Made by a program: the position numbers and the translations under genes | Notes under the pieces: generated by a model | Databases searched by the model: none | Told to the model about the DNA's origin: nothing | The model's input: only the letters and a program-made list of their open reading frames with translations | Part shown: one piece after another, positions 12 to 33,703 of the stretch | Layout of the letters: each line of letters begins with the position of its first letter | Position numbering within the stretch: position 1 is the first letter of the stretch | DNA from: an uncultured bacterium | GTDB lineage: Bacteria > Poribacteria > WGA-4E > B28-G17 | DNA length: 36,666 bases | Assembly: GCA_964535855.1 (NCBI GenBank) | Contig: CAZHVH010000001.1 | Location: forward strand, 1-36,666 | Reading direction: 5' to 3'

Positions 12-317
12 CTATTCAGCTTCTGTCCTGTTTTCTTTTAGCACAGCCCATGTGACGGGAAGTTCTCCATCGAGCTCCACGGGCAGGTTTATTCGAAACT
101 GGCGTATGTTTTCCCCTTCGACCTTTATCTCCTCGAAGTGAATCGGGTGCTGGCATGCCACGACTCCCAATCCCACTTTCCCCTCTTTGAACCCTTTCCT
201 CTCGAAGTCGGCATCACCCACCCTCATACGTAATACCCCGTTCAGGTGGATGACGGGGTTAGCCGTCGCAATCGCCTTTGGAACGGGAGTTGTGTTATTG
301 GGGTTAAGATTGTCCAA
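12..317 (-). pseudogene. Truncated 3'-end remnant of a DUF1080/concanavalin-A-like lectin-glucanase gene, a fragment copy of the intact gene at 33005..33703
   Basis: The translation HLNGVLRMRVGDADFERKGFKEGKVGLGVVACQHPIHFEEIKVEGENIRQFRINLPVELDGELPVTWAVLK equals the C-terminal ~70 aa of the 232-aa protein at 33005..33703, with one E/K change. The 23 upstream codons and the last 8 codons are unrelated. The signal peptide and the N-terminal two thirds of the domain are absent. Confidence 0.55.
40..250. repeat. Left copy of a 211-bp direct repeat (partner at 33030..33240)
   Basis: Base-by-base comparison at a constant offset of 32990 nt gives one mismatch (65 c vs 33055 t). Identity ends sharply at 250/251. 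It decays over about 10 nt below position 40. Confidence 0.97.
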
Positions 318-344
318 GGTGAAATGTTACAGGGGAGGCGAAAG

Positions 345-473
345 ATGAACGTACTGATAACGGGCGGAGCGGGGTTCACCTCATATGAGATCGCAGGACA
401 CCGTCTACTTTCCGCCTCTATCATGAGAGAAGCGAGAGGCAATACTCACTTTCAAATCGCCTGGGTCATTTAA
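345..473 (+). pseudogene. Possible N-terminal remnant of an NAD-dependent epimerase/dehydratase gene
   Basis: An AGGGGAGG Shine-Dalgarno precedes ATG 345. The product starts MNVLITGGAGF, the classic Rossmann GxxGxxG N-terminus of SDR epimerases. It then loses resemblance and stops after 42 codons. Confidence 0.3.
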
Positions 474-616
474 TTCATAAGATGATACCGTATCGTAAGG
501 CTTTCAGTATCCGTGATGTTTATTGTATTGTAGAGGAGACTTCTCCGCTGTTAGAGAAGCGCTTTGATCGTGAGGGCGGAATGTCAAGATTCCATGACGG
601 GTTGATCTCAGGCAGG

Positions 617-3600
617 TCAATCTCCCCAACTTTCCCCGTGAAACTCAAGGGATAGGGGTAGCTTACTGCTATCAACCATCAAGATATACCCTTCCCCTGG
701 AGAGAGGAGGAAATTACTGGGAGAATCGGGAGGCAAGGAGGGATAATAAAACGTGATTTTAGGGGTGGGCTCGATCTTTATAACCTGCTCGATAGCCCCA
801 TTTGATATCCACACGAGGTCTGAAGCTCTTCTTACTCTTCGGTCATCGACGGGCAGGCCGAAAAGGAAAACCTTGGAGTTTATCAAAACGCTTCCGACCC
901 ATTTTCTGCCCTTAAGCGTAACTTCCGCCGGTTGGTTCATAACGACGATATATCCTCTTCCGCCTTCTACAGGCAGGTTATTGAGGGAGTCTGGTCCCAT
1001 AGATCGGGTATATGTGACGAACTTCTCCTGCTGTGAATCATAACATACTATCGCAACGCATGAAGGACCTATTCGATCGGTTAGATCGTCCAGACTCCTG
1101 AGCTCCGGATCGTTTACCGGTATACTTATCAGATTTAGCCCTCGTTTAAGTTTCAGTTTGAACGTATATTGATTTTTCAGAAGGAGTTCCAGTTTATAGG
1201 TTCCGATATTTCCCGCCCTATCGGTTGCCGTAAGTTCTATCTCTTTCTTGCCATCAGCCGCTAAATTTTCAGAGGAGATTTTAAATCTAAGCAGGAAATT
1301 TCCGGGTTCGACCTCCGAAAACTCAACGGGTTCAGATCTAGTGGTATCTAGAGGGCTTAAGTCGGCTTTGACATCGCATTCCAGCTCACATTTCGCTTTT
1401 ATCTCGATCTCATCACCGTTTTCAACCCTGTAGCGATTAACCTGTACACCGTAAATTTCGGGAGGAAGTGTATCGATGGAGATACGTTTCGAATAGGAAG
1501 CTACGTTGTCGAGAGGATCTGTCAAGCTGACCGTAAGGATAGCATTATACTCCTCTATCCCATCGCGCGGCGAAAAGGTGTAAGTATATAAGCAAGCCTC
1601 AGGAGTTTTTTCCTTCTCCACCATCTCCGTCTCCTCAATTATGCCGGGGCCTATCGAGAGTTTCACGCTAGAGTCCGGCTCCCCCTTGACCGTTATTTTG
1701 AGGGTTTCACCGCGTTTGATAACATCTTTATCCACTGAGACCTGGTATATCTCAGCGATCGCATCGATATTGACGATTCCCGTCCTTGTCTCGCTATTTC
1801 CATATTTATCGGTCAATGATACGCTTAATAGATCTCCAACAGCTTTATCTCCAGGTTTGACGGTATACGATCCGGAGTAACTGCCGGGGTGATCGGGATT
1901 TTCCTTAAGCGGGACATCCTGGACAACGTCCTTGATGGAGAAAGTTCCAGTGCAGCTAGGTTCAGCTTCAACCATAACGGACAGTTTCACTCCCGCCTTG
2001 GCTTTATCCGGAGATACCGTAATATCGCCGATCTGTACCACAGCATCTATCCATATTTTCCGGTCACTGGATTTGGTGGCTGTTTGCCCCGATTCATCGG
2101 TTAGAGTGACCGTCACATACTCACCGTCGACGTAGTCTCCCGCCTTAACCGTGTATTGCGCTGACCATATCCCGTTACTCTCGCGCAGTTCTCCCTGAAT
2201 GTCCTGACCGATTTGAAAGCTGCCGGATATAGCCTTGAATATATCCCTATTCAGGTGTGCTTTTATAAGTATGGTATCACCCGCAACGGCTGCATCCTCC
2301 TCCTCTGGTGATTGATGGATCACGCTTACCTCTACGTATTTGATCCGACTTCTATATCGAAATATGGCTGAGGCGATCGCCCCGGATTTACCGCCTCGGG
2401 CTATGAATCTGATATAATGGTTGTCGGGATAATCCTCGGATATCAGAGCGGAAAGTTTGAACATGCCGTTTTCATCAGCTTTGGCGGACAGCCGTTCACC
2501 GTCGAAGTCGATGGTGATCTCCTCCCCTGGATAGAACCAATCGCCGCTGAGATCAACTTGGGTTCCCAGGGTTCCCTCCCCTGGTGATACCATCAGACTG
2601 GGGTTAGAAGTTGTGATGGTTTTAGCGATTTCCTCCGTAAATCCGGAACCAGAGCCTTTGACTTTCACAGTTGTGCCGCTGATACCGGACGGAAGAACAC
2701 ATTCCGCCTTAAAGCTTCCCCTCTCATCTGTGGTTCCGTCGCTATCAATCCGAAGAGAAGTTCCATTCAGCTCAACTGAGATATCCTCTTGGGGACCAAA
2801 GCCTATCCCCTCAACGATTAGCTTTAGCTTTCTCTGGGAAACCTCTTTAATGATCGGCGAGTAGACCACGGTTACGGAAGATGAAAGTGTTCCATCGTCG
2901 GCTACGATAAGCGCTTCACCACCCGGCTGTTCATCCAGAATCAGAGATTTGGTGAATTTCCCACCTTCGGCATCAGCCTTAACCGTTTCAATCACCCCGT
3001 CCAGCCCAAGGGATATCTTAACAAGCCTTCCAGGCATAAATCCCTCACCGTGTAATTCTACCCGTTGTCCCGGAACTCCTTCGATCTGCCGAAGGTGTGT
3101 CTCATCCGGGGCTATGAAGTAAAGGGATGGTATCACGGTAAATCTGGCTTCATTTACCCCGTCCGTCACCACATATTCACCGCCAGATACCTGAGGAGGA
3201 ATCCTCATTATAGGATCACCGTTTGCATCATATCCGACGAACGAGAGATTGTAAGATCCGAATTTAAGATTGAAAGGATAGGTAGTTCCTTTAACCGTGA
3301 AGCTGCTACCTGGTTCGCCTCTATCCGGTATTAGCTCAAGTCTCTCAAGGGCGATTATGGGTTCTGGATAAGAGACAGGATATTTCGACTCAGACCCCGT
3401 AACGGTTATAAAGTTCTCTCTTTTTCTAAGCAGCTCATCGGTCAGGACGAAATTCGCTTCGAGACTTCCGTCATGAAGAGCCTTTACGGGTTCAATCGCA
3501 TCATCGACGAGCAAGCCACCAAATCTGATCTCTATCTCCTCACCGGGGACAAAACCGCTTCCATATATATAAAGCACATCCCCTGCTTGGGCGCTATATC

Positions 3601-6016
3601 CTAGGACGCGAAAACCTCTCCTTTCAATTTCCGCTCCTGTGATCTTCGGTAGAATTCTGAAGGGAAGGTATTTCGTCTCATCCCCTATCTCCACTTTTAA
3701 AACCTTATCCCCGAATTCCTGAGGTGGAATCGCTATGGGGAGGGAAAAACCACCGAACTCGTTGGCATTGCCTTCAAGCAGCAGCTTCTCGTATCCGGTT
3801 TTCCCAAGCGATATCCTGATATCGACGTAAGGTTGATATCCTGAGCCCATGACACTCACGATCTCGCCCGGGGCACCGGATTCCTTATCAACTCTCAGAG
3901 ATTCTAATAGCGTGAACTTAGCTTCCTTAACTTTCCTCCCGCTCTGGTATATAGTGATCCTTTTCTCACCTGCCCGAGGAATATCTTGAATGGTTGATGA
4001 AAGGGAGAAAAATCCCATCTCATCCGTTGATCCCGTCGCCAAAAGTCGGTTTAATCCTGCATCATCCTCTATATAAATACCTATAGCTTTTAAGGGTACA
4101 AACCCTGCGCCTTGAATTTTTAAAACACTTCCGTTCTCTGCCGATGAGGGTGAGATGCTGAGAAATCTTGTGTCATCGAGCTTAGATACGATGATTTTGC
4201 AGTCTGCTTTTCCCTCATCTTCCACCTCAGAAGCGATGACAGTAAAGGTCCCACTCGCTCCATCGTTCATAACGATAGAGGTGCGAAAAGATCCGTATCC
4301 ATCCGTCCTTACTTTCCTGTTAAATCTGGGTTGCTCCTCTTCAATATAAACATCCACATCTGAGTTAGGTGCAAACCCATTTCCTTCTATCGATATGAGA
4401 ATCCCTTCTACCTCTGCCGATATGGAGGGCACCAGGGTAAGCTCTTTGGTGACCTCCGATCTGAGCTGGAAACTAGTAGCTTCAACCTTCAATGTTTTAG
4501 GGCCCCTTGGCATGTTCGGAACGTTAAACCTCAAGATAAAGCTGCCGTCAGGCGGCACGATATACCGCCCAAAGCTTCCGTTTCCGAGATATTCCCTGTT
4601 CAGCGGGACCCCGTTGAAGTCAAAGCATGAGATGGAAGGGGAAAGGGCGTTAAGCTCCACGTCTATCAACCCGTTAGATGGAAAACCCTCGCATCTCAGC
4701 TCCATCTCCTCTCCCGGGTGAATTTGACCATCGGAAGGAAAGCCCGAAACTTTTGGAGTTGGAACATACCTGATCGATTCGACATCGGACAGACCGGATC
4801 TTTCCCCAATAGCCGACACGATGAGATCTGTCGGTTTGTTTTGTATGATCCATCCCTTTTCCAGGACGAAACTGGACCTGAATTCCCCCATCTCGTCCGC
4901 GACGATCGGTTTAATTTCCCTGGAGCCGATTCTGATTTCGACGATCTCACCAGGGGCAAAGGCTGTACCGGTTATCGAGAACTCCTGGCCTATTTCGCCG
5001 AACAGCGGGGTTATCTCGATCTGAGGTATTACCGTCAACGCGTTATCCGCTATATATATCAGGTTATCATCCTGGTATATCCACAGATCTTTCAACCCAC
5101 CCGGAAGTTTCGGCAGCGTTAAATCGGCGGAAACCTTTCCATATTCATCGCTGCTGAACAGCCCAAGGGATCTGCCTTCTGGGTAAATTTTAAGTTGGAA
5201 GCGGGGAGGAAATCCACATCCCTGCAGGGTAATCCGCCCTTCAGACTTGACATTGATCGGATCGACCGATCTCAGCCTTGGCTCTATCAGAAAGGAAGTG
5301 GTATATCTCCGTCCCGAGCTTCCCGTCAACTCCACATCCCTCAAACCGTAGGTGAAATCCGGAACGATAAATTCGAATTCCACCTCTCCAGTATCTGAGG
5401 CGATGATCGTGGCTGGAAACGTTGGAGGGCTTATATTGCCGATATGCAAGGAGATAATCTCTCCTGAAGCAAAACCGGTCGCCCGGCATGTAATTCTCTC
5501 ATCCGGCTTGCCATAGTACCTTTCCAGCGTCATACCGCCCCCCACGATAACCTCGCTCCATCTCGCCCTAAGTCCAAGGAAATTCGGGACCGGTAATCCC
5601 CTAGAATCGGTTAACTGTATTGACCCATCCTTGAATCTAAGATCGGTTTTTCCACTTCGTATAGCTCGAAAATTCAGCGTAACAAGGTGAATCATCCCGT
5701 AGGCTTCCGAGCTCTCCTCATGATCGAAAGCGACCGTGACGGATATGAGATCTCCAGTTGGATAAACGCGTATATTGTTCGGAAATATCTGTGGTTGATA
5801 TTCGATGATACCAGAATCAAACTCCAGGGTGAAGCTGACGGCGAGAAGTTTATCCGCGACGGCCTCGACGCTCAGCGTGAAAAGTTCACCCTCGTTCAAT
5901 ATACCCTTAGAGGGTATGAGGAGAAGCTCCGGGGTTAGAGCTTCCACGTGTAGGGGGAAAACCATGAAAAACAGCAGGGAAAGGAAGGCTAGAATATAAG
6001 TCCGCCTTTGAATCAT
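617..6016 (-). CDS. Giant (1799 aa) secreted multidomain surface protein: signal peptide, cohesin-like domain, ~12 IPT/TIG-like repeats, 4 Ig-like modules, 2 tandem C-terminal modules
   Basis: Uninterrupted 5.4-kb ORF whose ATG lies 23 nt after the flgM stop. Sec-type signal MIQRRTYILAFLSLLFFMVFPLHVEA|L. Residues ~27-160 look cohesin-like (LFTLSVEAVADKLLAVSFTLEFDSGIIEY ... LVTLNFRAIRSGKTDLRF). Repeats carry a G-x-G-F/Y-x-P signature (ITLQGCGFPP, FSITGTAFAPGE, ISIEGNGFAPNS, LKIQGAGFVPLK, VSVMGSGYQPYV, LYIYGSGFVPGE, VELHGEGFMPGR, LIVEGIGFGPQE, VDLSGDWFYPGE). Four modules end Y-T-V-K-x-G-D ... L-T-D-x-x-G-N ... I-D. Confidence 0.85.
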   Translation of the reverse strand: MIQRRTYILAFLSLLFFMVFPLHVEALTPELLLIPSKGILNEGELFTLSVEAVADKLLAVSFTLEFDSGIIEYQPQIFPNNIRVYPTGDLISVTVAFDHEESSEAYGMIHLVTLNFRAIRSGKTDLRFKDGSIQLTDSRGLPVPNFLGLRARWSEVIVGGGMTLERYYGKPDERITCRATGFASGEIISLHIGNISPPTFPATIIASDTGEVEFEFIVPDFTYGLRDVELTGSSGRRYTTSFLIEPRLRSVDPINVKSEGRITLQGCGFPPRFQLKIYPEGRSLGLFSSDEYGKVSADLTLPKLPGGLKDLWIYQDDNLIYIADNALTVIPQIEITPLFGEIGQEFSITGTAFAPGEIVEIRIGSREIKPIVADEMGEFRSSFVLEKGWIIQNKPTDLIVSAIGERSGLSDVESIRYVPTPKVSGFPSDGQIHPGEEMELRCEGFPSNGLIDVELNALSPSISCFDFNGVPLNREYLGNGSFGRYIVPPDGSFILRFNVPNMPRGPKTLKVEATSFQLRSEVTKELTLVPSISAEVEGILISIEGNGFAPNSDVDVYIEEEQPRFNRKVRTDGYGSFRTSIVMNDGASGTFTVIASEVEDEGKADCKIIVSKLDDTRFLSISPSSAENGSVLKIQGAGFVPLKAIGIYIEDDAGLNRLLATGSTDEMGFFSLSSTIQDIPRAGEKRITIYQSGRKVKEAKFTLLESLRVDKESGAPGEIVSVMGSGYQPYVDIRISLGKTGYEKLLLEGNANEFGGFSLPIAIPPQEFGDKVLKVEIGDETKYLPFRILPKITGAEIERRGFRVLGYSAQAGDVLYIYGSGFVPGEEIEIRFGGLLVDDAIEPVKALHDGSLEANFVLTDELLRKRENFITVTGSESKYPVSYPEPIIALERLELIPDRGEPGSSFTVKGTTYPFNLKFGSYNLSFVGYDANGDPIMRIPPQVSGGEYVVTDGVNEARFTVIPSLYFIAPDETHLRQIEGVPGQRVELHGEGFMPGRLVKISLGLDGVIETVKADAEGGKFTKSLILDEQPGGEALIVADDGTLSSSVTVVYSPIIKEVSQRKLKLIVEGIGFGPQEDISVELNGTSLRIDSDGTTDERGSFKAECVLPSGISGTTVKVKGSGSGFTEEIAKTITTSNPSLMVSPGEGTLGTQVDLSGDWFYPGEEITIDFDGERLSAKADENGMFKLSALISEDYPDNHYIRFIARGGKSGAIASAIFRYRSRIKYVEVSVIHQSPEEEDAAVAGDTILIKAHLNRDIFKAISGSFQIGQDIQGELRESNGIWSAQYTVKAGDYVDGEYVTVTLTDESGQTATKSSDRKIWIDAVVQIGDITVSPDKAKAGVKLSVMVEAEPSCTGTFSIKDVVQDVPLKENPDHPGSYSGSYTVKPGDKAVGDLLSVSLTDKYGNSETRTGIVNIDAIAEIYQVSVDKDVIKRGETLKITVKGEPDSSVKLSIGPGIIEETEMVEKEKTPEACLYTYTFSPRDGIEEYNAILTVSLTDPLDNVASYSKRISIDTLPPEIYGVQVNRYRVENGDEIEIKAKCELECDVKADLSPLDTTRSEPVEFSEVEPGNFLLRFKISSENLAADGKKEIELTATDRAGNIGTYKLELLLKNQYTFKLKLKRGLNLISIPVNDPELRSLDDLTDRIGPSCVAIVCYDSQQEKFVTYTRSMGPDSLNNLPVEGGRGYIVVMNQPAEVTLKGRKWVGSVLINSKVFLFGLPVDDRRVRRASDLVWISNGAIEQVIKIEPTPKITFYYPSLPPDSPSNFLLSPGEGYILMVDSSKLPLSLEFHGESWGD

Positions 6017-6039: not shown

Positions 6040-6333
6040 CTATATCTCATCGAGCAACAATGCCTTGAGCAACTCTTCTGCAACTTGAGATAAGGGGACG
6101 TTGTACTCACCCTGTTCTATTCTCCTGGCGAGATCATCCACCTTTCCAGATCGGATATCCGGGATCTCTTTAAGCTTGCCCATTGCTTTAGCTACGAGTT
6201 TACCTTCTTCTGATAAAACCGCTATATCTGATCGGAAATCCTCAGACTCACCGCCCCTTTGGATGTTCCTCTCCCGGGATGAAGGGTGGGTCTCCACGCC
6301 TAAGATCTTATAGATGCTGGGTAATATCTTCAT
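6040..6333 (-). CDS. flgM: Anti-sigma-28 factor FlgM
   Basis: 97 aa. DIAVLSEEGKLVAKAMGKLKEIPDIRSGKVDDLARRIEQGEYNVPLSQVAEELL matches the FlgM C-terminal signature. The ATG overlaps the fliD stop (ATGA at 6330..6333). Confidence 0.82.
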   Translation of the reverse strand: MKILPSIYKILGVETHPSSRERNIQRGGESEDFRSDIAVLSEEGKLVAKAMGKLKEIPDIRSGKVDDLARRIEQGEYNVPLSQVAEELLKALLLDEI

Positions 6334-8768
6334 CTTGATCTCCCTCCACCTATACTCATCAGGGAGATAATCTGTAGGTTAAAGAGCTGCTGGGATAAGA
6401 AACTGGACTGAGTCTGCAAATTACCTAGAGCCTCCTCGAGTTTTGAATATTGCTCCATTAGCTTTTGTCTTGTCTCTTCAATTCGTCTGTCGAACTCCTC
6501 CAGTTTGTTATTCGTTTCGGATATTCTTCTGTCGATTATCTGGATTCTGCCGTCGATTACTCCCGTGTAAACCTGGGTATATCCCGAGAGGATACTCTCG
6601 ATTTTCTCGGCTATACCTTGAGTTGAGCTACTGGTAGTCGCGAATATCTCCGCTACCCCTTCGGGGTCTTTCTGGATGGCCTCCCTCAATTTGCTATAAT
6701 CCCTTATTGTTATATCTAAACCGCGTAAGATCTGATCCAAAGTTACCGTTCCGGCAGAGGGTTTTCCTATTCCGATGCTGATCAGGCTGTTCTTTCCCGA
6801 GGGAAGTCCCTCAACCTGTTCCATCATCGCCTGATTGAGACGCCGAACGAGAGCTTTAAGAGTCGGATCTCCTCGAAGGGCATTGGTATTGATAGATTCC
6901 TCAGTCCCTTCCGAGGTCTGTTGCTGAGACACTAAAGGTATAAAGACCTTCTCACGTATATAGCTTATGGTCTCGTTATAGGAATCTATGAAATCCTGAA
7001 TTGCCTGAACGGCTTCATCCACATCAGCTTCAATCTCGATCTTAACTGTCGTTCCTGGAGCGCTTTTTTGAAGTGAGAGCGTAACACCGGGAATGGCGGA
7101 GTCAATGATATTCGAATTCGAAATCACCTCATTCCCATTTACCGTGATCTTGGCGTCCTGACCGGGTTCGACCTGACTTTGATTGAGCTTAAGCTTTGAA
7201 AGCAAATTACCGTCTCCATCTTGGAGGTTAATCTTCGGACTGCCCGTCTTTTCAGATACCAGATTGAATTTATCCTCGTTTATATCGTAATAAGCATTGA
7301 CACTCGCGTCGGAGGAATTGATCTTGATTATCAGATCCTGAAGGGTATCAGATGGATCGAAATCTATCCGAGTTCCGTTTATGTTGAAGTAACCAGGGCT
7401 TGTTATGCCGAAAAGGATCTGTAGAGTCCTGGAAGGGTTGATAGCCCCGAGCTTAAACTCGCTTTCAACAATCACCTCCGAACCGTTATTCACCTGATCG
7501 GCCTGAGAGAGACCAACGACATCTAGAAAGTTGGAGGTATCCCCTGAGCTCCCTACGTTTATCCAGGGCGTTTCGCCATCCTGACTTAACACTATCTTAC
7601 CGTCTTGATATGCAGCGGTAACACCTGTGGTATTAGTGACGCTGTTTATCTTTCCCAGCACATCATCTATCGTGTCGCTCAAATCGACAAATAAACTTGT
7701 TCCATTAATCGAAAAGGTTCCGGTGTTAACGTTCCATTTGAACGGCGTCTGATCGCCTTGGTCGATGAAATGAAGAGCATCTGTATCGCTGAATTCGCCA
7801 TCCTTACCGATATATCTGCTTTTCAAGGTTGAGCTTGTCAATCCTATAACGTCGAGGAAGTCGGTCTTACCCGCGAGGGAAGCGGAATTTCCCCCTTGTG
7901 GGGCGGAGATCGTAAGGGTCTGTGTTGAATCGTCATATGAGACACTTAATCCGGCATTTTGCAATTGATCTTTCAGATTCTCCAGTGTGGTGTCAGAATC
8001 GATGAAGATATCGTTTCCATTTACCGATAAAATGCCGATTCTAATGCCGAGGTTAATCACTCTATCGGTTAAAGCACCGGTGATCTGATATGAATTACCG
8101 GGGCGTAATTTCAAATCGCCAATGCCGTCGGTATCATCCAGGAGCTGAAGCAGGTTGGAATTTCCGAAGAACTGGATTTTATAATCCTGACCAAGAGCGA
8201 TCTGAAGATATTTATAGCTGTTCTCCGTTTCAACGCTCGCCTGGAGGATGTTCGAATCACCAACGGCTGAGTTTATAGCATTTATAATTCCCTGAATGTT
8301 CGTTGTATCAGTGCCGCCTACCTCGACGGCATATTTGCCTTGGAGGGTACCATCCGGATTGGAAATTTGGAAGTATATTTTCCCTTTATGGATTTTAACA
8401 AGCCCTTCTGTCCCATCAAGAGGTGTCCCTAACTCATCAGAGGACTCGACCCTGGAGGGGGTTGCCAATTGATTGACGACAACTTCATAGGTTCCTGTGG
8501 GAGCTTGGGAGGAGATAGATGAAATATTGACTATGCTTTCATCGGAGGAAGTTCCTATACGGGATGTAAAGGTGGAATGAAACTTTAACCCGCTTGCTTT
8601 CGACTGAAGAGCTAACAATCTAGCTTTTATATCCTGTAGTATAACGCGCTGGGACTGAAGATCGGTTAATTTAGATTCTATTCGCGTTCTAGGCTGTCTT
8701 TGGATCTCTATAAGCTGATCGATAATTTCCTGAGTATTCAACCCTGATATCAAACCATATACGTTCAT
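6330..8768 (-). CDS. fliD: Flagellar filament cap protein FliD (enlarged, 812 aa)
   Basis: N-terminal GLISGLNTQEIIDQLIEIQRQPRTRIESKLTDLQSQ and C-terminal IIDRRISETNNKLEEFDRRIEETRQKLMEQYSKLEEALGNLQTQSSFLSQQL are the conserved FliD terminal helices. The central part holds 3-4 Flagellin_IN-like repeats. GAGGTG lies 7 nt before the ATG. Confidence 0.9.
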   Translation of the reverse strand: MNVYGLISGLNTQEIIDQLIEIQRQPRTRIESKLTDLQSQRVILQDIKARLLALQSKASGLKFHSTFTSRIGTSSDESIVNISSISSQAPTGTYEVVVNQLATPSRVESSDELGTPLDGTEGLVKIHKGKIYFQISNPDGTLQGKYAVEVGGTDTTNIQGIINAINSAVGDSNILQASVETENSYKYLQIALGQDYKIQFFGNSNLLQLLDDTDGIGDLKLRPGNSYQITGALTDRVINLGIRIGILSVNGNDIFIDSDTTLENLKDQLQNAGLSVSYDDSTQTLTISAPQGGNSASLAGKTDFLDVIGLTSSTLKSRYIGKDGEFSDTDALHFIDQGDQTPFKWNVNTGTFSINGTSLFVDLSDTIDDVLGKINSVTNTTGVTAAYQDGKIVLSQDGETPWINVGSSGDTSNFLDVVGLSQADQVNNGSEVIVESEFKLGAINPSRTLQILFGITSPGYFNINGTRIDFDPSDTLQDLIIKINSSDASVNAYYDINEDKFNLVSEKTGSPKINLQDGDGNLLSKLKLNQSQVEPGQDAKITVNGNEVISNSNIIDSAIPGVTLSLQKSAPGTTVKIEIEADVDEAVQAIQDFIDSYNETISYIREKVFIPLVSQQQTSEGTEESINTNALRGDPTLKALVRRLNQAMMEQVEGLPSGKNSLISIGIGKPSAGTVTLDQILRGLDITIRDYSKLREAIQKDPEGVAEIFATTSSSTQGIAEKIESILSGYTQVYTGVIDGRIQIIDRRISETNNKLEEFDRRIEETRQKLMEQYSKLEEALGNLQTQSSFLSQQLFNLQIISLMSIGGGRSR

Positions 8769-8801
8769 AACCCTACACCTCAGATGAAGTCCTAGTAAGG
8801 A

Positions 8802-8828
8802 TTATCGACAGCAAGATGCTAAAGTTTA
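8802..8828 (-). promoter_or_regulatory. Sigma-28 (FliA)-type promoter upstream of fliD
   Basis: The minus strand reads TAAACTTT-AGCATCTTGCT-GTCGATAA, against the consensus TAAAGTTT-N11-GCCGATAA (equivalently TAAA-N15-GCCGATAA). The -10 element ends 33 nt before the fliD ATG. The -35 element starts 4 nt after the upstream stop codon. Confidence 0.7.
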
Positions 8829-8831
8829 GCA

Positions 8832-24145: not shown

Positions 24146-24165
24146 ACTAATTTCACCACCTTATT

Positions 24166-24879: not shown

Positions 24880-25343
24880 ATCACCCCTTCAGGCATCTGT
24901 GTGCTCTTCCTATGATATCCGTTAGTGGTTACCATGTCTAGAAGGGTCATCTCCCCCTTGGACAGCTTTTCAAGGAATCTCCTGTAATCTCTATCCCTTA
25001 ACTTCTCGAAGATCTTCCGTTCCTTAATCGCTTGAATTGTTTTTTCCCTACGTCGGTTTACCTCAAGATCGGCCTTTCTAATCCTTGAGGCTTGATTCTG
25101 AAGCTCGGCGTTTAGATGGGAAAGATATCTATGGGCCGAGATATATCTCAGAGGGTTCCATCCCACCTTCTGCCCGGTTCTCATTTCGTCCATGACCTCC
25201 GATATCTCCGACTCGATCTCCTCCCTCCGCTCGATCTCCTTTCTGAGAGCGATGATGGCCTCAGATAACTCCCTTTTCCTAATATCTTCGATCTCTTTCT
25301 TCAGGTTCAAAATTCTTTCAAGCCTAAACGTATATCCATACAT
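24876..25343 (-). CDS. fliJ: Flagellar export chaperone FliJ
   Basis: 155 aa and all-helical. FRLERILNLKKEIEDIRKRELSEA. It starts 2 nt after the fliI stop. Confidence 0.8.
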   Translation of the reverse strand: MYGYTFRLERILNLKKEIEDIRKRELSEAIIALRKEIERREEIESEISEVMDEMRTGQKVGWNPLRYISAHRYLSHLNAELQNQASRIRKADLEVNRRREKTIQAIKERKIFEKLRDRDYRRFLEKLSKGEMTLLDMVTTNGYHRKSTQMPEGVM

Positions 25344-25345
25344 AG

Positions 25346-26674: not shown

Positions 26675-27512
26675 CCTCCGTCTCCCGTCCCGTTTTCAAA
26701 GCCTCGACTATTTTTTTTAATTGTCCCCCGATCTGAGCGTCTATCTGACCGGTGGATGTGATCACAACGCATCCCCCTGGTTCGACACTCTCATCTTGGA
26801 CTATATCGATTATCCTGGACTCAGCTACTTCTGCGAACAGATCATCTTTAAATTTATCCAGATGTTTCATGTCCTTCGGATTGACTTTGATTACCAACCG
26901 ATCGTTTTCGAGGGAGTACTTGATAACAGCCTTGACCAGGTTTTTGATAACTCTGCCTGAGTCGATTTCATCTTGAATCACCTTACGCGCTATTGAAAGG
27001 GAAAGGTCCACAAGTTCGGGCTCGGCCTCCTGAAGGATCTTCTGCCTCTGGTCAATCACGCTTCTAGCTATTGCCTTTAGCTCCTGTATGGCCTCGCGAA
27101 ATTCTGCCTTCCCTTTTTCGAATCCCTCATCATATCCTCTTCTGTATCCGGTTTCATATCCCTCTTCCCGTCCCTTTTCCACCCCCTGGGCATGCCCGCT
27201 ATTGAATCCTTCTTCTCTGCCCTGTTCAAATCCCTCTCGATATGCTCGAGCTTTAATCTCCTCGGCCTCATTCCGCGCCTTTTCCAGAATCGATCGTTTT
27301 TCGTCCTCGGCCTCCCGAAGCGCTTTCTGCTTTATGCTTTCAGCATCCTGACGAGCTCTCTTCAGGATTTCCTCTGCTTCCTGTTGAGCCCTCTTGATTT
27401 TCTCCTCAATCTCTTTGAGATCCGGTTCAACCTTCTCGACTTCCGTTTTTTTCTCAAAGCCGATCAGCACAGGCTCCGGTATCACCCTGATATTGCGAAG
27501 GATCCTGGCCAC
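26649..27512 (-). CDS. fliH: Flagellar export ATPase regulator FliH
   Basis: Charged N-terminal helices are followed by an A-x3-G-(x3-G)10 glycine repeat. It overlaps fliI by 26 nt. Confidence 0.85.
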   Translation of the reverse strand: MARILRNIRVIPEPVLIGFEKKTEVEKVEPDLKEIEEKIKRAQQEAEEILKRARQDAESIKQKALREAEDEKRSILEKARNEAEEIKARAYREGFEQGREEGFNSGHAQGVEKGREEGYETGYRRGYDEGFEKGKAEFREAIQELKAIARSVIDQRQKILQEAEPELVDLSLSIARKVIQDEIDSGRVIKNLVKAVIKYSLENDRLVIKVNPKDMKHLDKFKDDLFAEVAESRIIDIVQDESVEPGGCVVITSTGQIDAQIGGQLKKIVEALKTGRETEDVEGVDRS

Positions 27513-27530
27513 GATCTCCTCCCTATCCTT

Positions 27531-28517
27531 TTATATCACTTCCTCCTCCACGAGGGATCTTGAAACTGTTATCTCGCCGTTGGCTTCAAGATCTCTTATC
27601 ACATCGAGTATCTTCCTCCTCGCCTCGTTGACCTGAGATGCTGGTACAGGTCCCATATCGATCTCCATCTCTATATCTCGTCTTAGCCTGGATGGAAGGG
27701 CGTTGAGGAACTTACTGGTAACCTCCGGTGAAGCTCTCCTCAAAGCCGCTGGCAGCAGGCTTGTATCGATTCTGCGTATAACGATTCTCTTCATGTCGGA
27801 ATCAGAGATATTGACTATATCCTCAAAGGTGAACATTTTATCGCGCACACGCTGAGCTAGGAGCGGGTCCATACTTCCCAATATGGTTTTCTGTAGGTTG
27901 GCATCGGCCCGCACGAGGATCTGAGCCAACCTGCCTGTTCCGTCTCCAAGCCCGCCCCTTGCTCCGGAAGATACCTTTTGTAGCTTTTCTTTAAGCGCCT
28001 CCTCAACCTGTTTCAGGGCATCCGGGGTAACTCTTTCGAGCTCAGCTATCCTACGGGCGACGTCGTTACGTCTGCTAGGTGGATCTATACGTGATAAGAC
28101 CTGGGCGGCTTTATCGGGAGACAGGCTGGAAAGGACAACCGCTATAGTTTGAGGGTGTTCGTTCTGAATATAGGTGTATATATCATTGGGGTCAGCATCC
28201 CTTAAAAAGGCGAAGGGGGCTGTGGAAAGCAGATGTCTGATCTGTTCGGTCTTGCGTCTGCCGGCGTATGAACCGTATGCCGCTTCCAGTATCTTTTGGA
28301 TATCGACGAGATCACCATATATGTCATGTTGTTCCTTCAATTCGTAGAACTCCCTCAGAACCCTATCCCTTTCCTCAGGGAGTGCATTTTTAGCCCCCTG
28401 GGCCAGCTCATATATCACAGCATCTCGGGCCTCTTCCCATAGCAGTTTAATCACTTCGGCGGCCGCCTCATTCCCAAGAAGGGTCAACAGCACAGCGGCC
28501 TTTCTTGCACCTTTCAT
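27531..28517 (-). CDS. fliG: Flagellar motor switch protein FliG
   Basis: 328 aa. The N-terminus is ARKAAVLLTLLGNEAAAEVIKLL. The middle and C-terminal domains include MFTFEDIVNISDSDMKRIV. Confidence 0.92.
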   Translation of the reverse strand: MKGARKAAVLLTLLGNEAAAEVIKLLWEEARDAVIYELAQGAKNALPEERDRVLREFYELKEQHDIYGDLVDIQKILEAAYGSYAGRRKTEQIRHLLSTAPFAFLRDADPNDIYTYIQNEHPQTIAVVLSSLSPDKAAQVLSRIDPPSRRNDVARRIAELERVTPDALKQVEEALKEKLQKVSSGARGGLGDGTGRLAQILVRADANLQKTILGSMDPLLAQRVRDKMFTFEDIVNISDSDMKRIVIRRIDTSLLPAALRRASPEVTSKFLNALPSRLRRDIEMEIDMGPVPASQVNEARRKILDVIRDLEANGEITVSRSLVEEEVI

Positions 28518-28520
28518 CTC

Positions 28521-30200
28521 TTATTCCTCCTTTTCCTCCTCCGTGATCCAGCGGCCGATTATCTCGGCCACTATATCGGGATGTTCCCTCGCAAAATTTA
28601 TTATCTCCTCAAGCTGTTTTCGTTTCCGTTCCTCCTCCTCTCGTTTTTTCCGTTCCTCCTCTTCCTGCTTTCTCCGTTTCTCTTCTTCCTGCCTTAGTCT
28701 TTCCTCCTCTTCCTTTCTCAGCCTCTCCTCCTCAAGTTTCCTTATTCTCTCTTCCTCCTCTCGCATCGCTTCAATAAGCCCCGGTATCGGAACTTCAACG
28801 CCAGGTCTTACCTCCTCAGGAGCAGCAGGTGGCACTTTCTCTATCAGGATAGATCTGAGGAAAAGCAGGACTGCTATCACTATCAGGGCTATGACCCCCA
28901 TTTTAAGCGGTTCATGCCACCAGACCTCGGCCTGAGCTGCCATTTCAGGCTCGCGCAATAAGCTTGCCGGCTCAACCACCACGCTTTCGGAACTGTTCGG
29001 ATAGCTATTTGAGACCAGATTGCTCACTATCTTCTTAATGCTGTCCTTATACCCTTCGATGGAACGGTCGATCAAAATCGAGACGGAAACTTTCTTCACC
29101 TCAGGCGATTTCTCTATTTCCTCTTTAACTCTGTTTACCTCGTAATTAATAGTCTGCTCTCTGAGTTCATACTCCGATTCCTGAGGAGCTTCCGTTTCGA
29201 CATACCCTGGGATATTAGAAGTGACTCCCGGCACTCCGCCTGGCTGTCCTCCCGGAGTTCCCTTGCCGGTGTAGAACTCACGCCGTTCCTGCTTGCTTAT
29301 CGGTATTCCCTCCTCACCGACGACAGGGCTATAGAGTTCCCTCCGGATTTTGTGGGATGTCAGATCCAATTCGACATCCACCATCACGATGACCTTTTCG
29401 GGGCCGTATGCCTGTGCAAGAGCGCTCTGAATTTTGCCCTTCAAATCCATCTCATAATCCTTCTTTATCTTCCTCTGATCCTGGGTCAACTCCAGCTTAT
29501 CCAGACCGGCTGATTTATCCTTTATCAGGTGCGACAGATAAATACCATCGACGGTGATGCTTATCGTCTCCGAGCTCAACTTTAGCCCTGGGACCGCCCT
29601 CGCTACGAAACTAGCTATAGCTTGTATGTATTGGGGTTTAAATCTATCGCTCCCATCAGTTGTGATCATGATGCTTGCAGTGGTAGGCTCCTGTTCTTCT
29701 AGGAAGAGCCTTCTGCGCGGCATCGTGATCAGGACCCTGACGTACTTAACGCCAGGGAAATGCCTTATAGTTCTTTCTAACTCAGTTTGAAGGGCCGCTT
29801 GCAGGTTTATCCGCTGCTGTTGATCGGTCACCCCCAGCCTTGTCCGCTCGAACAGTTCGAATCCCGGGTGTTTAGCTTCCTCCTTGGGTAATCCCGCCGT
29901 TGCCAGCTCTACATAGGCCTTTTGAAGGTCTTTTTTCGGCACTCTGACCTCATTCTTATCCCTCGAGACCTGAACGTCTATCCCTACCTCCGCTAGTTTC
30001 GCTACCACATCTCTCAGATCGCTGCTGGTGAGGTCTGTATACAACACAGCGTATTCGGGTTTGTTAAACAAAAATCCGGTGATAATGAGGGTTATCAGGG
30101 CAGCAGCCACGACCGCTACTATAATGACCTTATATGCCGGTGGGAATTTATTCCAGAACTCACCAACGCTTTCTGTAAAATGCTGGAGTTGTTCTCGCAT
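28521..30200 (-). CDS. fliF: MS-ring protein FliF with a C-terminal ER/K-rich insertion
   Basis: 559 aa. TM1 is VIIVAVVAAALITLIITGF and TM2 is MGVIALIVIAVLLFLRSIL, with periplasmic ring-building domains between them. The C-terminal FliG-binding-type helix is IINFAREHPDIVAEIIGRWITEE. Confidence 0.92.
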   Translation of the reverse strand: MREQLQHFTESVGEFWNKFPPAYKVIIVAVVAAALITLIITGFLFNKPEYAVLYTDLTSSDLRDVVAKLAEVGIDVQVSRDKNEVRVPKKDLQKAYVELATAGLPKEEAKHPGFELFERTRLGVTDQQQRINLQAALQTELERTIRHFPGVKYVRVLITMPRRRLFLEEQEPTTASIMITTDGSDRFKPQYIQAIASFVARAVPGLKLSSETISITVDGIYLSHLIKDKSAGLDKLELTQDQRKIKKDYEMDLKGKIQSALAQAYGPEKVIVMVDVELDLTSHKIRRELYSPVVGEEGIPISKQERREFYTGKGTPGGQPGGVPGVTSNIPGYVETEAPQESEYELREQTINYEVNRVKEEIEKSPEVKKVSVSILIDRSIEGYKDSIKKIVSNLVSNSYPNSSESVVVEPASLLREPEMAAQAEVWWHEPLKMGVIALIVIAVLLFLRSILIEKVPPAAPEEVRPGVEVPIPGLIEAMREEEERIRKLEEERLRKEEEERLRQEEEKRRKQEEEERKKREEEERKRKQLEEIINFAREHPDIVAEIIGRWITEEEKEE

Positions 30201-30219
30201 TTCAGTGCTCCTTATAATA

Positions 30220-30513
30220 TTATACCTGCATATGCATTATCTCCTGATACGCATCCACTAATCTGTTTCTCACTTCAACTAAGAACTGAAGGGCTAGCCT
30301 AGCTTCCTCTATCGCTATCATCACTTCATGGGTATTTTCCACTTTTCCTAGAGCGAAGTTAACCGCCATCTCATCGGCTTTAAGCTGCATCCTATTTATC
30401 CTGGAGAGCGCCTCTTTGATCGTATCCTTGAACGACTTAGTCTGTACACCTAAAGAGCGTTGAAGCCCAATCTCAGAGAAACCCACAGTTGGTTTTATCG
30501 CCTCTATCCTCAT
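30220..30513 (-). CDS. fliE: Flagellar hook-basal body protein FliE
   Basis: 97 aa. The C-terminus HEVMIAIEEARLALQFLVEVRNRLVDAYQEIMHMQV is typical of FliE. Confidence 0.85.
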   Translation of the reverse strand: MRIEAIKPTVGFSEIGLQRSLGVQTKSFKDTIKEALSRINRMQLKADEMAVNFALGKVENTHEVMIAIEEARLALQFLVEVRNRLVDAYQEIMHMQV

Positions 30514-30524
30514 AAATCACCCCC

Positions 30525-30926
30525 TTATCTCATGACCATATCGAGCCTTTGGTATTTAGCAGACAGCAACCTTGTCGTTATCACGTAATACATTGAGTTT
30601 TTATATAGCTCCGCCATTTCCCTGTCTATATCGACATTGTTTTTATCGTTCCGCATAGATGTATCGTTTTCCCGAAACAGCCTTGGCTTAACATCTTGTA
30701 TTCCGGGAGTCCCAATCGGGATATGCTTAGGGCGCGTGGTTATGCCTCTGAAAACGCCCTTGTCCAAGGCAAGGCGAAGCTGATGTTTAAAATCAACATC
30801 TAGTCTTTTATACCTCGGCGTATCAACGTTGGCTATGTTATGAGCCAACGCCTGATGCCGCAATGAAGCCCCGTCTAAAGCCTTTTTCAGGACGAGAAAC
30901 GTTTCGCTGTTAAATACCTTTAGCAT
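30525..30926 (-). CDS. flgB: Proximal rod protein FlgB
   Basis: 133 aa. It carries the rod N-terminal motif LRHQALAHNIANVDTPRYKRLDVDF. Confidence 0.85.
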   Translation of the reverse strand: MLKVFNSETFLVLKKALDGASLRHQALAHNIANVDTPRYKRLDVDFKHQLRLALDKGVFRGITTRPKHIPIGTPGIQDVKPRLFRENDTSMRNDKNNVDIDREMAELYKNSMYYVITTRLLSAKYQRLDMVMR

Positions 30927-30931
30927 CTTTC

Positions 30932-31372
30932 TTACCCCCTCTTGTCGAGAAACCTGCTGTTAGACCTTATTTCACCTTTGATGTAGGCCTCACCAGCTCT
31001 GGCGATATCCGTAAGCCCTGCACCGGTTTTCCTCAAAACCGACATCATCTTCATCAATCTATCCTCCGCCCTCCGATCCAGGCTTAATATTGAATTGATA
31101 AGTTTCTCCTGATCCTTAATAAGGGAAACCACTCGCTCGGAAAGCTCTGAAGGGAGTTTTGAACGCAGTTTGTTCCAACTTGCCTTTAAGTCTTTGATGT
31201 CTTCATCTATCTGGGACAATCGGTCGATAAGCTCGGCTCTCTCGCTCATCAGAGACATAAACCCTTCAACATCAGAGCGGTCGAGGGCGGAAAGTTGATC
31301 TTCAGCTATGCTTAGGATCCGCTCGTATATCTCGTTTTCACTGCGAAGAGAGGCTAGAAGCTTGGATATCAC
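30932..31372 (-). CDS. flgN: FlgN-family-like export chaperone (tentative)
   Basis: 146 aa and all-helical. LLASLRSENEIYERILSIAEDQLSALDRSDVEGFMSLMSERAELIDRLSQI fits the FlgN pattern. The GTG start follows GGGGGGAAGAG. It overlaps the upstream gene by 35 nt. Confidence 0.5.
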   Translation of the reverse strand: MISKLLASLRSENEIYERILSIAEDQLSALDRSDVEGFMSLMSERAELIDRLSQIDEDIKDLKASWNKLRSKLPSELSERVVSLIKDQEKLINSILSLDRRAEDRLMKMMSVLRKTGAGLTDIARAGEAYIKGEIRSNSRFLDKRG

Positions 31373-32915
31373 CTCTTCCCCCCAGATCCTTGATGATTTT
31401 TTTGATCTTATCTGCCTCGCTACTTTGACCCGTCCTTACGTAGCACTCCGCCATCTGTTCGAGAGCGTAGAGCTTAAAGTTTCCCTGAGCACCCTGCCTG
31501 TAAGCTTCAACCGCCTTCTCGTACTCCCCCTTTCTGAACATTATGTCTCCGACGAGCAGGTACAGCTTGAGAAGAGATCTTCTGATCTCAGGTGAAACCC
31601 TGCCGATATCAGCGATTCTCTCGATGAAATTTCTGGATACTTCAAGGGCCCGATCGTAATCTCCTATTTCAAAGTAGGAGTCAGCCAGTCTATATCCATT
31701 TTCGTAATCGAGTCTCTTACAATTCCAGGCGATTCTGTATGCCTTTACGGCATTACCATACTGACCCAATTCGTAATATGCCTGTCCTAACAGCGATGCT
31801 ATGTCGATCCTGCGGCTTATATCGTCTTCAGCCAGCTTAGAGGCTTCTCTAAGGATTTGAACGGCCTCCCGCAGATGAGGAACATCTCCTATTTCTATGT
31901 ATGACTGACTCAGCTTTATCATTGATTCGAGCATCAGAGGAGCATAACCATTCGCCCGATTTCTGCTCACACAGGGTTTGAGATACTTGACGGCTTCGTC
32001 CGGAGAACCTAACTCCAGGTAAATTTCACCCAGCCTCAGCATTGAGGTCATAGCTTCAAGCTTATACAGCTCGTACTTTTTTTCCTCTATGGATTTCAAG
32101 GCGATCTTATATGCCTTCATCCTCTTCGGCAGGCTTTTCGGATCAAAAGCGTAGGAATCACCTGCCGCGATGGCAACGCTGGGAGTCAAAGCGCTTTCCG
32201 GGAAATCCTCCAGGAACGATTCAAACGTCGCCTGAGCTTCCTCCACATCACCCATGTCCCAAAGGCATCGTCCTAGCATGTAACGAGAATCGTCAGCAAG
32301 TTTGAGCGAAGATCCACCATGATCCTTCACCATGCGGTAATATTCAGCTGCTTTCCGGACATCTCCACGCATGTATAAAGTCGTTCCAACCCAGAAGGCA
32401 GCGAACTCGGCTTCCATAGAGTCGGGATATGCTTCTATGGCTTCCCTATAAGAGGTTATGACTCCATTTTTCCCCAGGAGGGTGGACTCATAGAGTTCCT
32501 CGCGCTTCAAGGCTTTCAGCACGGGAAGCTGAGAACGGAGGGAATCGCCCACTCTGAACATTACGAATTTACGATAGGGCACATCCAGCCTGTTACGGAC
32601 ATCATAAGCCGCCAACTTAAATCCGGCATGAGCAGCAACTAGGTAATCGAGGGCACTTTTGAGAGTCCTCTCCTTTTCGTCCCCGTGAAGCAATTCAGCT
32701 TTTTGGGTTTCCTCTAATCCTTTCTTATAAAGCTCCTCTACGCGAGCGATCTCATAGGTTAACTTTTCTTTCTGCCGATTCGCCTCGTAGATCTGCTCAA
32801 GAGCACTGAGTGATTCCTCGTAATGCCCAGACTTGATTCCGAAGGAAATATCATCTAGCCCCCAACCACCAGAGCAAATCACTATTAAAGTGAAAATCAC
32901 GGATAAACCCGCCAT
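31338..32915 (-). CDS. TPR-repeat protein with an N-terminal hydrophobic signal or anchor; first gene of the flagellar operon
   Basis: 525 aa. The N-terminus is MAGLSVIFTLIVICSGGWG. It has many TPR-like units (LGQAYYELGQYGNAVKAYRIAW, LADSYFEIGDYDRALEV, VGDIMFRKGEYEKAVEAYRQG, MAECYVRTGQSSEA). Confidence 0.75.
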   Translation of the reverse strand: MAGLSVIFTLIVICSGGWGLDDISFGIKSGHYEESLSALEQIYEANRQKEKLTYEIARVEELYKKGLEETQKAELLHGDEKERTLKSALDYLVAAHAGFKLAAYDVRNRLDVPYRKFVMFRVGDSLRSQLPVLKALKREELYESTLLGKNGVITSYREAIEAYPDSMEAEFAAFWVGTTLYMRGDVRKAAEYYRMVKDHGGSSLKLADDSRYMLGRCLWDMGDVEEAQATFESFLEDFPESALTPSVAIAAGDSYAFDPKSLPKRMKAYKIALKSIEEKKYELYKLEAMTSMLRLGEIYLELGSPDEAVKYLKPCVSRNRANGYAPLMLESMIKLSQSYIEIGDVPHLREAVQILREASKLAEDDISRRIDIASLLGQAYYELGQYGNAVKAYRIAWNCKRLDYENGYRLADSYFEIGDYDRALEVSRNFIERIADIGRVSPEIRRSLLKLYLLVGDIMFRKGEYEKAVEAYRQGAQGNFKLYALEQMAECYVRTGQSSEADKIKKIIKDLGGRGDIQASSLSSQ

Positions 32916-32962
32916 GGCCCCCGCCTTATAAGCCCATCCTTTTCGGTCTTTTGAACAAAAAC

Positions 32963-32991
32963 ATTTTACAACATCTCAATGGCAATGTCAA
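32963..32991 (-). promoter_or_regulatory. Sigma-70-type promoter of the long flagellar operon
   Basis: The minus strand reads TTGACA-TTGCCATTGAGATGTTG-TAAAAT, with a 17-nt spacer. An A/T tract (GGAAAAATTTTTG) lies just upstream. The -10 element is 47 nt before the TPR gene ATG. Confidence 0.65.
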
Positions 32992-33004
32992 ACAAAAATT
33001 TTTC

Positions 33005-33703
33005 CTATAACCCCTTTTGCTCTGCCTTCAGCACAGCCCATGTGACGGGAAGTTTTCCATCGAGCTCCACGGGCAGGTTTATTCGAAACTGGCGTATGTT
33101 TTCCCCTTCGACCTTTATCTCCTCGAAGTGAATCGGGTGCTGGCATGCCACGACTCCCAATCCCACTTTCCCCTCTTTGAACCCTTTCCTCTCGAAGTCG
33201 GCATCACCCACCCTCATACGTAATACCCCGTTCAGGTGGACCCAGATCCACATCCCGTCCAGCTTAACCTTGATGTGATCCTCCGGGAATTTCACCTCCG
33301 ATGGCTCCATCCTTATTGTGTTGAAGCTTCCATTTATGAGCTTATATACGGTCAATCCGTCAGCGTTCAGCTTTAGCGCGTAACCGTTCAGCTCATCCAC
33401 CATTCTGAAAAGAAGCAACGCCTGATCGCTCTCCTCCGCCCCTTCCTCAAATCTGACCGTGAGCTCTATGGTGCCGTTCGCTATATTCCATGGGCTTTGT
33501 AAAAGGGTGTAGAAGGCGCCGGAGAGGTTCCTGGCTTCCATCGGCAGATCCTGACTCTGGACGTAGGCACCCCCTTCAACTTTCCACTCACCCGATATGA
33601 CCTTCCATCCGTAGTTATCGCCGTCCTCGAAATCGTCTATGAAGATCCCACCGAAGGCCGGGGTTAGGGAAAGAAGAAGCAAAGGTAACACTAGGCTTTT
33701 CAT
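33005..33703 (-). CDS. Secreted DUF1080/LamG-like (concanavalin-A-like lectin-glucanase fold) protein
   Basis: Signal peptide MKSLVLPLLLLSLTPAFG. FIDDFEDGDNYGWKVISGEWKVEGGAY and the C-terminal GKVGLGVVACQHPIHFEEIKV are typical of this fold family. Confidence 0.6.
   Translation of the reverse strand: MKSLVLPLLLLSLTPAFGGIFIDDFEDGDNYGWKVISGEWKVEGGAYVQSQDLPMEARNLSGAFYTLLQSPWNIANGTIELTVRFEEGAEESDQALLLFRMVDELNGYALKLNADGLTVYKLINGSFNTIRMEPSEVKFPEDHIKVKLDGMWIWVHLNGVLRMRVGDADFERKGFKEGKVGLGVVACQHPIHFEEIKVEGENIRQFRINLPVELDGKLPVTWAVLKAEQKGL
33030..33240. repeat. Right copy of the 211-bp direct repeat (partner at 40..250)
   Basis: It lies inside the 3' third of the intact DUF1080-like gene and is 210/211 identical to 40..250. 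Confidence 0.97.

Follow-up and report, generated by a model that had tools for sequence, protein, structure and literature searches.

A 214-bp direct repeat brackets a strain-variable flagellar gene block in an uncultured Poribacteria population

Gene content of the locus

The window analysed here is a whole stretch of 36,666 nt, positions 1 to 36,666 of contig CAZHVH010000001.1 (assembly GCA_964535855.1), from an uncultured bacterium of the Poribacteria lineage B28-G17. According to protein records, the contig is 38,273 nt long. Most of the window consists of a 32.8-kb flagellar gene block lying between two direct copies of a 214-nt segment, called F here, of a gene encoding a DUF1080-like protein. 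On the evidence of the alignments, the repeat is a genuine duplication of this internal 3' segment of the CBM9-linked gene. The arrangement is written as an intact gene, A-F-B, which contains the right copy F_R, then the block, then an orphan fragment, y-F-B', which contains the left copy F_L (Table 1). One homologous crossover in F relates this block-bearing state to a block-less state, A-F-B', found in close strains.

Table 1. Features of the locus, with positions in the window.
Feature	Position	Strand	Basis or remark
B', alternative 3' tail after the left copy (ENRTEAE, stop codon at 12-14)	12..36	-	Also terminates the full-length gene of block-less strains
F_L, orphan left copy of the 214-bp DUF1080-like gene segment	37..250	-	Repeat search, locus alignment
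y, spacer from the orphan fragment to the giant-protein gene	251..616	.	Locus comparison
Giant-protein gene (1799 aa, Ig-like repeats), last gene of the block	617..6016	-	Pfam, ERZ27248349 contigs
Flagellar genes of the block	6040..32915	-	Pfam scans, precomputed Pfam annotation
Intergenic region with predicted operon promoter (TTGACA-17-TAAAAT, ~32959-32991)	32916..33004	-	Sequence comparison
B, 3' tail of the intact gene (AEQKGL and stop codon)	33005..33026	-	Seen only in the block-bearing strain
F_R, right repeat copy within the intact DUF1080-like gene	33027..33240	-	Repeat search, locus alignment
A, unique 5' two-thirds of the DUF1080-like gene, with signal peptide	33241..33703	-	Open reading frame, Pfam
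CBM9 gene, upstream partner of the DUF1080-like gene in every relative examined	33716..34510	-	Locus comparison

A repeat search of the window returned a single direct-repeat family, the two F copies, with a spacing of 32,990 nt and 212 of 214 positions matching; the two mismatches fall at 39/33029 and 65/33055. An earlier reading of the window, made from its sequence alone and referred to below as the sequence-only reading, had placed the repeat at 40-250 and 33030-33240 with 210 of 211 positions identical, which is correct within this fuller extent. Chance cannot account for such a repeat. The same search found no inverted repeats and no further long repeats in the window, and no terminal inverted repeats at the ends of the insert. 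The sole likeness of those ends, a 7-nt inverted match (GGGGTTA, 254-260 and 33009-33015), was judged to be chance.

F_R comprises codons ~155-226 of an intact 232-aa open reading frame (ORF; 33005-33703, minus strand) whose product ends in ...VLKAEQKGL*, while F_L sits in a 101-aa ORF (12-317, minus strand) ending in ...VLKENRTEAE*. Homology of the left copy to the intact gene stops sharply at 250/251 and at 36/37. Upstream of 250/251 the 101-aa ORF has nothing in common with the intact gene, and its final seven codons are ENRTEAE* as against AEQKGL*. The layout of an intact gene, 33 kb of intervening DNA and an orphan 3' fragment, with an abrupt end of homology at 250/251 and altered last codons, had been described correctly in the sequence-only reading. 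The intact 232-aa protein matches PF06439 (3-keto-disaccharide hydrolase/DUF1080) weakly but over nearly the whole profile (18.5 bits against a cutoff of 26.8, E=0.002), and its orthologue P0004 has a precomputed match to the same family. Near the C-terminus, two hypervariable codons occur in alleles that are otherwise ~99% identical, LP[V/L/I]TWA[V/A/M/T]LK (window 33027-33060 and 37-70; proteins P0001, P0003, P0009 and P0010), sequencing run X1 having a further Thr variant.

In transcription order the block begins with genes for a TPR protein, a FlgN-like protein, a rod-like protein, FliE, FliF, FliG, FliH, FliI, FliJ, FlbD, MotA and MotB. These are followed by FliL, FliM, FliN, FliO, FliP, FliQ, FliR, FlhB and FlhA, and then by FlhF, an FlhG-like protein, PilZ, FliA, PilZ, FliD and FlgM, with unnamed ORFs interspersed among the named genes. 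The block thus encodes the export gate, the MS/C ring, the stator, FlhF/G, FliA, FliD and FlgM together with the giant secreted protein; it contains no hook, distal-rod or flagellin genes. Pfam scans assigned the named block genes and several of the unnamed ORFs to flagellar, PilZ, TPR or Ig-like families or to none; neither an integrase nor a transposase was among them, in agreement with what the sequence-only reading had reported. Four block ORFs are without a Pfam family (9712-10695, 10705-11031, 11830-12207 and 24166-24879). There are likewise no tRNA genes in the window, and no Rfam matches.

Upstream of the TPR gene, conservation with a distant relative, L009, described below, is confined to the intergenic region holding the predicted promoter. 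The spacer y has no homologue in any fetched locus except that of the same strain. A candidate relic of an SDR epimerase/dehydratase gene within it, corresponding to the 5' end of such a gene (~331-425, plus strand; MNVLITGGAGF... read from 345-425), is no more than a lead: it has no statistical support, gives no Pfam match, and its PDB match, to residues 1-21 of a dTDP-glucose 4,6-dehydratase, is not significant (E=0.9). Barring one relative at 92% identity, the nearest named homologues of FlhA (14918-17011) are 53-58% identical and come from Firmicutes, namely Negativicutes, Syntrophomonadaceae and Thermosediminibacterales, which may bear on the deeper origin of the flagellar system.

The repeat in independent assemblies

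Names of matching proteins place the sequence in Candidatus Poribacteria. The sequencing runs that carry it are hydrothermal-vent and sediment metagenomes, the block-bearing samples being X1-X6. In X1, the run with the best match, the Logan contigs, built with k=31, form a two-in, two-out graph at the repeat, so the caveat attached to the sequence-only reading, that such a repeat is a classic cause of assembly chimeras, was a genuine concern. The window might have been joined wrongly through a collapsed repeat, or the block might be a separate circle accompanying an empty chromosomal site. Depth in X1 could be read in this way, since it pairs the two outer flanks (13.6 and 14, ~14x) against the inner edges (8.2 and 6.4), within a range of 6.4-8.4x on the block, although as evidence these values are weak, having been taken from k=31 contigs of a mixed community. 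The 185 identical bases at the centre of the window copies also exceed common k-mers.

The caveat is answered by ERZ27248349, an independent MEGAHIT assembly of the same population with contigs 99.9% identical to the window. Contig k141_537726 starts in the right flank, crosses the right copy and continues within the block, whereas contig k141_611050 leads out of the block by way of the giant-protein gene and y, crosses the left copy and extends for 25 kb more. Five of the 214 sites distinguish F_L from F_R here (F positions 74, 98, 119, 186 and 212). No interval between these single-nucleotide polymorphisms (SNPs), or from them to the unique flanks, reaches 141 nt, so the k=141 contigs phase A-F_R-B and y-F_L-B', chaining A to B and y to B' within 141-mers. 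Both contigs are unbranched, and all four junctions are present. Because copy-specific SNPs tie each copy to both of its flanks, a chimera is excluded, as is an empty chromosome with a free 33-kb circle. The y|F junction at 250/251 is present in five runs and is crossed without mismatch by read-size unitigs of three of them (X2, X4 and X6). The block has no replication genes, and a co-occurring block-less strain, of the type known from other runs, accounts for the depth pattern; the contrast in X1 itself suggests that block-less cells co-occur there. On the phased contigs the repeat is no assembly error, and an artefact of either kind is scarcely credible.

The window itself probably gives too high a figure for the identity of the copies. 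Its central 185 nt are identical, and at sites 74, 98 and 119 it has A, C and G, mixing the states of both phased copies and equalling those of the block-less allele L017. As these central states match a co-occurring block-less allele, the near-perfect identity is probably inflated, in part by collapse during multi-strain assembly of the repeat. About 209/214 is a better estimate. The two ERZ27248349 contigs overlap by ~149 nt at about 12671-12819 of the window, which suggests a graph branch due to strain variation in the FlhG/PilZ region of the block.

A block-less allele in close strains

The closest database protein to the intact gene product (P0003, 'hypothetical protein J7M22_04525 [Candidatus Poribacteria bacterium]') has 233 aa, is 99% identical and is of the A-F-B' type, as are P0009, P0012 and P0013. 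At the DNA level, block-less contigs occur in ENA, JGI, NCBI and Logan assemblies from at least eight samples, with ~99% identity in neighbouring genes. In all of them the CBM9 gene is followed by the A-F-B' gene, and no flagellar genes lie nearby. The block-less DNA matches the right flank of the window and the gene down to 33027, then positions 36-1 of the window, then 74 more bases of the ERZ27248349 contig. Homology in this way extends 85 nt past the stop codon and covers the final 44 nt of Wzz, a convergent gene. An uninterrupted path from the B' flank through F to A is present on single Logan contigs of runs X7 and X8, neither of which contains block sequence.

By alignment, A-F-B' is exactly the product predicted for a single crossover of F_L with F_R. 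The sequence-only reading had foreseen that recombination between the repeats would delete the block in one step and leave a functional chimeric gene, and had proposed looking for empty sites in relatives; that gene is now found in many natural samples, on contigs that share the 85 nt following the left copy. Over the 1270 nt of the CBM9 gene and part A, the types represented by the window, L004 and L017 are about equidistant, with only 11-15 differences.

As far as assemblies can show, these strains lack the block altogether and do not carry it elsewhere, because a collection of 15 billion proteins contains no TPR homologue above 55% identity and, with the exception of a single distant relative (92%), no FlhA homologue exceeding 58%. 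Beyond the 85 nt, the block-less contigs turn to an ADH/amidohydrolase/crystallin region, the result of a second, separate rearrangement. Right after the Wzz remnant, L004 has a 148-nt insertion relative to L017 (10794-10941), perhaps a small repeat element, in which a long imperfect hairpin (GGTTAAGGTCGAGAGACGAGAG...CTCTCGACTCTTAACTCTCGACC) is present.

Age of the block at the locus

A sister lineage, represented by four assemblies (L021, L026, L027, which is GCA_012962275.1, and L028), is 82-84% identical in the CBM9, DUF1080 and GH2 genes. Its gene order is CBM9, a DUF1080-like gene with a third tail, 25 nt, a remnant of the giant gene, 4 nt, the GH2 promoter, GH2 and SBD_N. The remnant consists of the last 154 nt of the giant gene, including the stop codon, and is 89.6% identical to window positions 770-617 (E=2e-54). 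GH2 and SBD_N also lie past the left copy, Wzz and Wza in the block-bearing strain. Since the sister keeps this remnant there, the giant gene stood between the DUF1080-like gene and GH2 before the species split. By implication, the block was at the locus in the common ancestor of both species, and its absence is a loss. On this comparison, the sister species is one that lost the block through its own, independent and older deletion. The tails B, B' and B'' all part company within 12 nt of one point after ...CTGAA.

More distantly, L009/L015 (71-73% nucleotide identity, FlhA 92% identical at the amino-acid level) carries the block complete and collinear, with the TPR gene first and a gene for a 1803-aa giant protein last, in an upstream context that differs from that of the window. 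A B28_G17 Poribacteria metagenome-assembled genome (MAG; L013/L022), at a distance similar to that of L009, has CBM9-DUF1080 followed by an SBP gene. A search of genome contigs with the DUF1080-like protein matched only Ca. Poribacteria B28_G17 (58% identity, with an SBP_bac_5 gene downstream) and two irrelevant sequences. Scans of metagenome contigs with the N-terminus of the distant relative's giant protein, and with a 28-mer conserved in the giant-gene remnant, gave no matches.

Base composition had been proposed as a means of comparing the block with its flanks. A deficit is present: the guanine-plus-cytosine (GC) content of the block is 47.7% against 52.9% for the flanks, GC at third codon positions (GC3) is 0.53 against 0.63, and the tetranucleotide r is 0.76-0.82 against 0.91, so that the block (617-32915) lies 5 points in GC and 10 points in GC3 below both flanks. 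It does not indicate recent import, however. An offset of the same size recurs in L009 (51.6% against 56.8%), whose genome is 4 points richer in GC. The deficit is therefore intrinsic to the block genes, and a recent foreign origin is ruled out by an equal deficit in a relative only 71-73% identical. Of the insertion into the DUF1080-like gene proposed in the sequence-only reading, the layout stands, as does B' as the tail of block-less relatives, but the block as a newcomer to the locus does not, given the 154-nt remnant in the sister species.

The stop codon of the sister's giant gene directly adjoins the GH2 promoter, which makes the 4.7-kb segment y-F_L-B'-Wzz-Wza-63aa a later addition in the block-bearing species. 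In L002 (16883-16959) the 63-aa ORF has its start codon only ~10 nt from the edge of the 63aa-Wza-Wzz cassette, where homology to the GH2 promoter region of the sister restarts. The motif ATTGA is present at both edges of the 4.7-kb segment, at the stop codon of the giant gene and just before the GH2 promoter, and may be a 5-nt microhomology or a target duplication.

Proposed mechanism and alternatives

We propose that the two F copies form a hinge around an ancestral block. A single RecA-type crossover between them would remove the whole block as a circle and leave behind an intact chimeric gene, A-F-B'. The block-less strains, which dominate other samples, would then most simply be F x F deletion derivatives with heritable loss of the flagellar core. 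We prefer this deletion reading because it needs no coincidence once the orphan copy exists and because its direction agrees with the scar in the sister species, but we do so tentatively, and as a whole it may well be wrong. The repeat pair with its four junctions, the one-copy allele that links the outer flanks and the ancestry of the block at the site are firmly established; it is the deletion direction of the crossover that we infer, along with the first origin of the orphan F copy.

Several points weigh against this proposal. The reverse reaction, and recombination between haplotypes, would yield identical structures. No derived state is common to F_L and F_R but absent from the block-less alleles, from which each copy has 5-7 differences; F_L resembles the allele of another strain and, on these differences, does not appear to be a recent in-genome copy of F_R. 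Because the two copies differ from each other as much as from block-less alleles, a repeat that served as deletion substrate and one that is a recombination scar are not separable. To arise, the orphan copy would need either an ectopic 214-bp patch or a donor with F beside Wzz, itself the block-less arrangement. In addition, no block-less allele with an intact Wzz gene was recovered, the second breakpoint lies inside Wzz in all block-less contigs found, and the X1 depth figures that suggest co-occurring block-less cells are weak.

The layout is also exactly that of an insertion-duplication product, as expected if a block-less A-F-B' strain had taken up the block from a conspecific. Either F-B-block-y circularised and entered by a single crossover in F, or the incoming DNA had one homologous and one illegitimate end. 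This is the model of the sequence-only reading moved within the species, with the intact gene regenerated and the old 3' end displaced. It would explain why B' is the common tail of the population and B is unique to the block-bearing strain, and the divergence between F_L and F_R is that of two alleles from different strains. For linear DNA that circularises and then integrates through a single crossover, there is a documented precedent in E. coli (PMC3240628). Among the SNPs of the repeat, L004 has the state of F_R at site 98 and that of F_L at 119 and 186, so that phased F_R agrees with L004 at the first site and disagrees at the other two while F_L is the mirror image, as a crossover between 98 and 119 predicts. 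The reverse reaction predicts this pattern equally, however; only three sites are informative, and L017 has a different pattern. A circular form was not observed, a donor with a different context is not known, and uptake of 33 kb through 214 bp of homology is demanding. Moreover, with the block ancestral at the locus, a gain would be a return to the same place. We regard re-acquisition as unlikely, though it deserves to be taken seriously.

The repeat may also be a by-product of the polymorphism and not its cause, which we consider distinctly unlikely. The block-less haplotype would have arisen first, through an illegitimate deletion with one endpoint at the end of F and the other in the spacer upstream of Wzz. 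A block-bearing cell would then have recombined with block-less DNA anchored in B'-Wzz, trapping the adjoining 214 bp of F by homology-facilitated illegitimate recombination, a process that typically traps short foreign stretches beside its anchor (PMC5361080 and references in it). The later addition of the 4.7-kb segment fits such a sequence of events. Without F_L, the 12-36 tail and 251-344 would make an ordinary spacer of ~160 nt between Wzz and the candidate relic of a co-directional downstream gene, but that relic, as noted above, has no statistical support. At site 186, an ancestral G is common to F_L and all block-less alleles, F_R having a private A. Against this, no block-bearing haplotype without F_L has been seen, the y|F junction being present in every block-containing run that covers it, and a neutral 214-bp insertion must have become fixed.

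In all three recombination models, F x F deletion, re-acquisition and capture of F as a scar, the repeat can now delete the block in one step. A further idea is that the block behaves as an integrase-free, RecA-dependent cassette that is excised as a circle via the 214-bp repeats and re-captured by block-less conspecifics. In sediment Poribacteria, motility would then be a reversible presence/absence trait at population level, traded against the neighbouring exopolysaccharide-export cassette. This is speculative, and we think it improbable.

Neighbouring genes

Beyond the left copy, contig k141_611050 encodes a Wzz/GNVR tyrosine kinase, Wza, a 63-aa ORF, a GH2/CBM60 protein and SBD_N. An exact look-up of the 63-aa gene matched only its own contig. 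Past SBD_N, genes of the block-bearing strain encode proteins of 604 aa (a DUF87/HerA-like ATPase), 628 aa and 292 aa (L025 1-4407, k141_611050). Their place in the sister species (L021) is taken by a 247-aa ORF, a DegT aminotransferase, NDK and DUF1015. This segment is a further strain-variable stretch, possibly a defence island.

Comparison with known systems and significance

The locus resembles a Campbell-type insertion-duplication in that a gene segment is present twice in direct orientation, one copy in a complete gene and the other truncated, in that the empty allele is the crossover product, and in that no site-specific recombinase is needed. Here, however, there are no vector or plasmid functions and no circular form was observed; the bracketed DNA is ancestral to the locus and not foreign, and the copies differ by ~2% in the phased assembly.

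C-terminal displacement that leaves orphan 3' fragments is known from rhs, contact-dependent inhibition (CDI) and type VI secretion system (T6SS) loci, and has been proposed to occur via homology-facilitated illegitimate recombination (Kirchberger et al. 2017, PMC5361080; Jackson et al. 2009, cited there). Shared features are a 5' part that stays constant, 3' tails that alternate, and an orphan 3' piece, displaced downstream of new cargo, that retains part of the constant region. The present gene differs in encoding a secreted DUF1080-like, CBM9-linked protein and no toxin, and in having a single orphan and no array. Its tails are 6-7 residues long without evident function and are followed by a flagellar operon or a Wzz gene, not by immunity genes.

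Integrase-driven islands at tRNA genes are similarly strain-variable over tens of kilobases, with direct-repeat borders and a GC content unlike that of the flanks. This locus has no integrase, tRNA gene or short att-type repeat, and its GC offset is intrinsic to the genes. Loss of flagellar clusters by large deletion is well known in non-motile lineages, examples being the E. coli Flag-2 scar, Shigella and Yersinia pestis. The parallel lies in the presence or absence of the block among close relatives and in the scars that stay, here the 154-nt remnant of the sister species. The difference is that the conspecific deletion endpoints coincide with a 214-bp direct repeat and that an intact fusion gene is left.

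In Poribacteria, flagella set free-living lineages apart from sponge-associated ones. Within one species-level population of this phylum, the flagellar core is a presence/absence polymorphism with a defined hinge and an intact fusion gene remaining. The mechanism is ordinary homologous recombination and leaves concepts unchanged; the locus is a well-documented natural case, in an uncultured phylum, of a repeat-hinged flagellar-core polymorphism of a kind already known. It calls for caution in assigning traits to MAGs, as one 214-bp repeat determines whether a bin appears motile. It also offers a PCR-testable route by which motility may be lost repeatedly, and possibly regained, without the enzymes of mobile elements.

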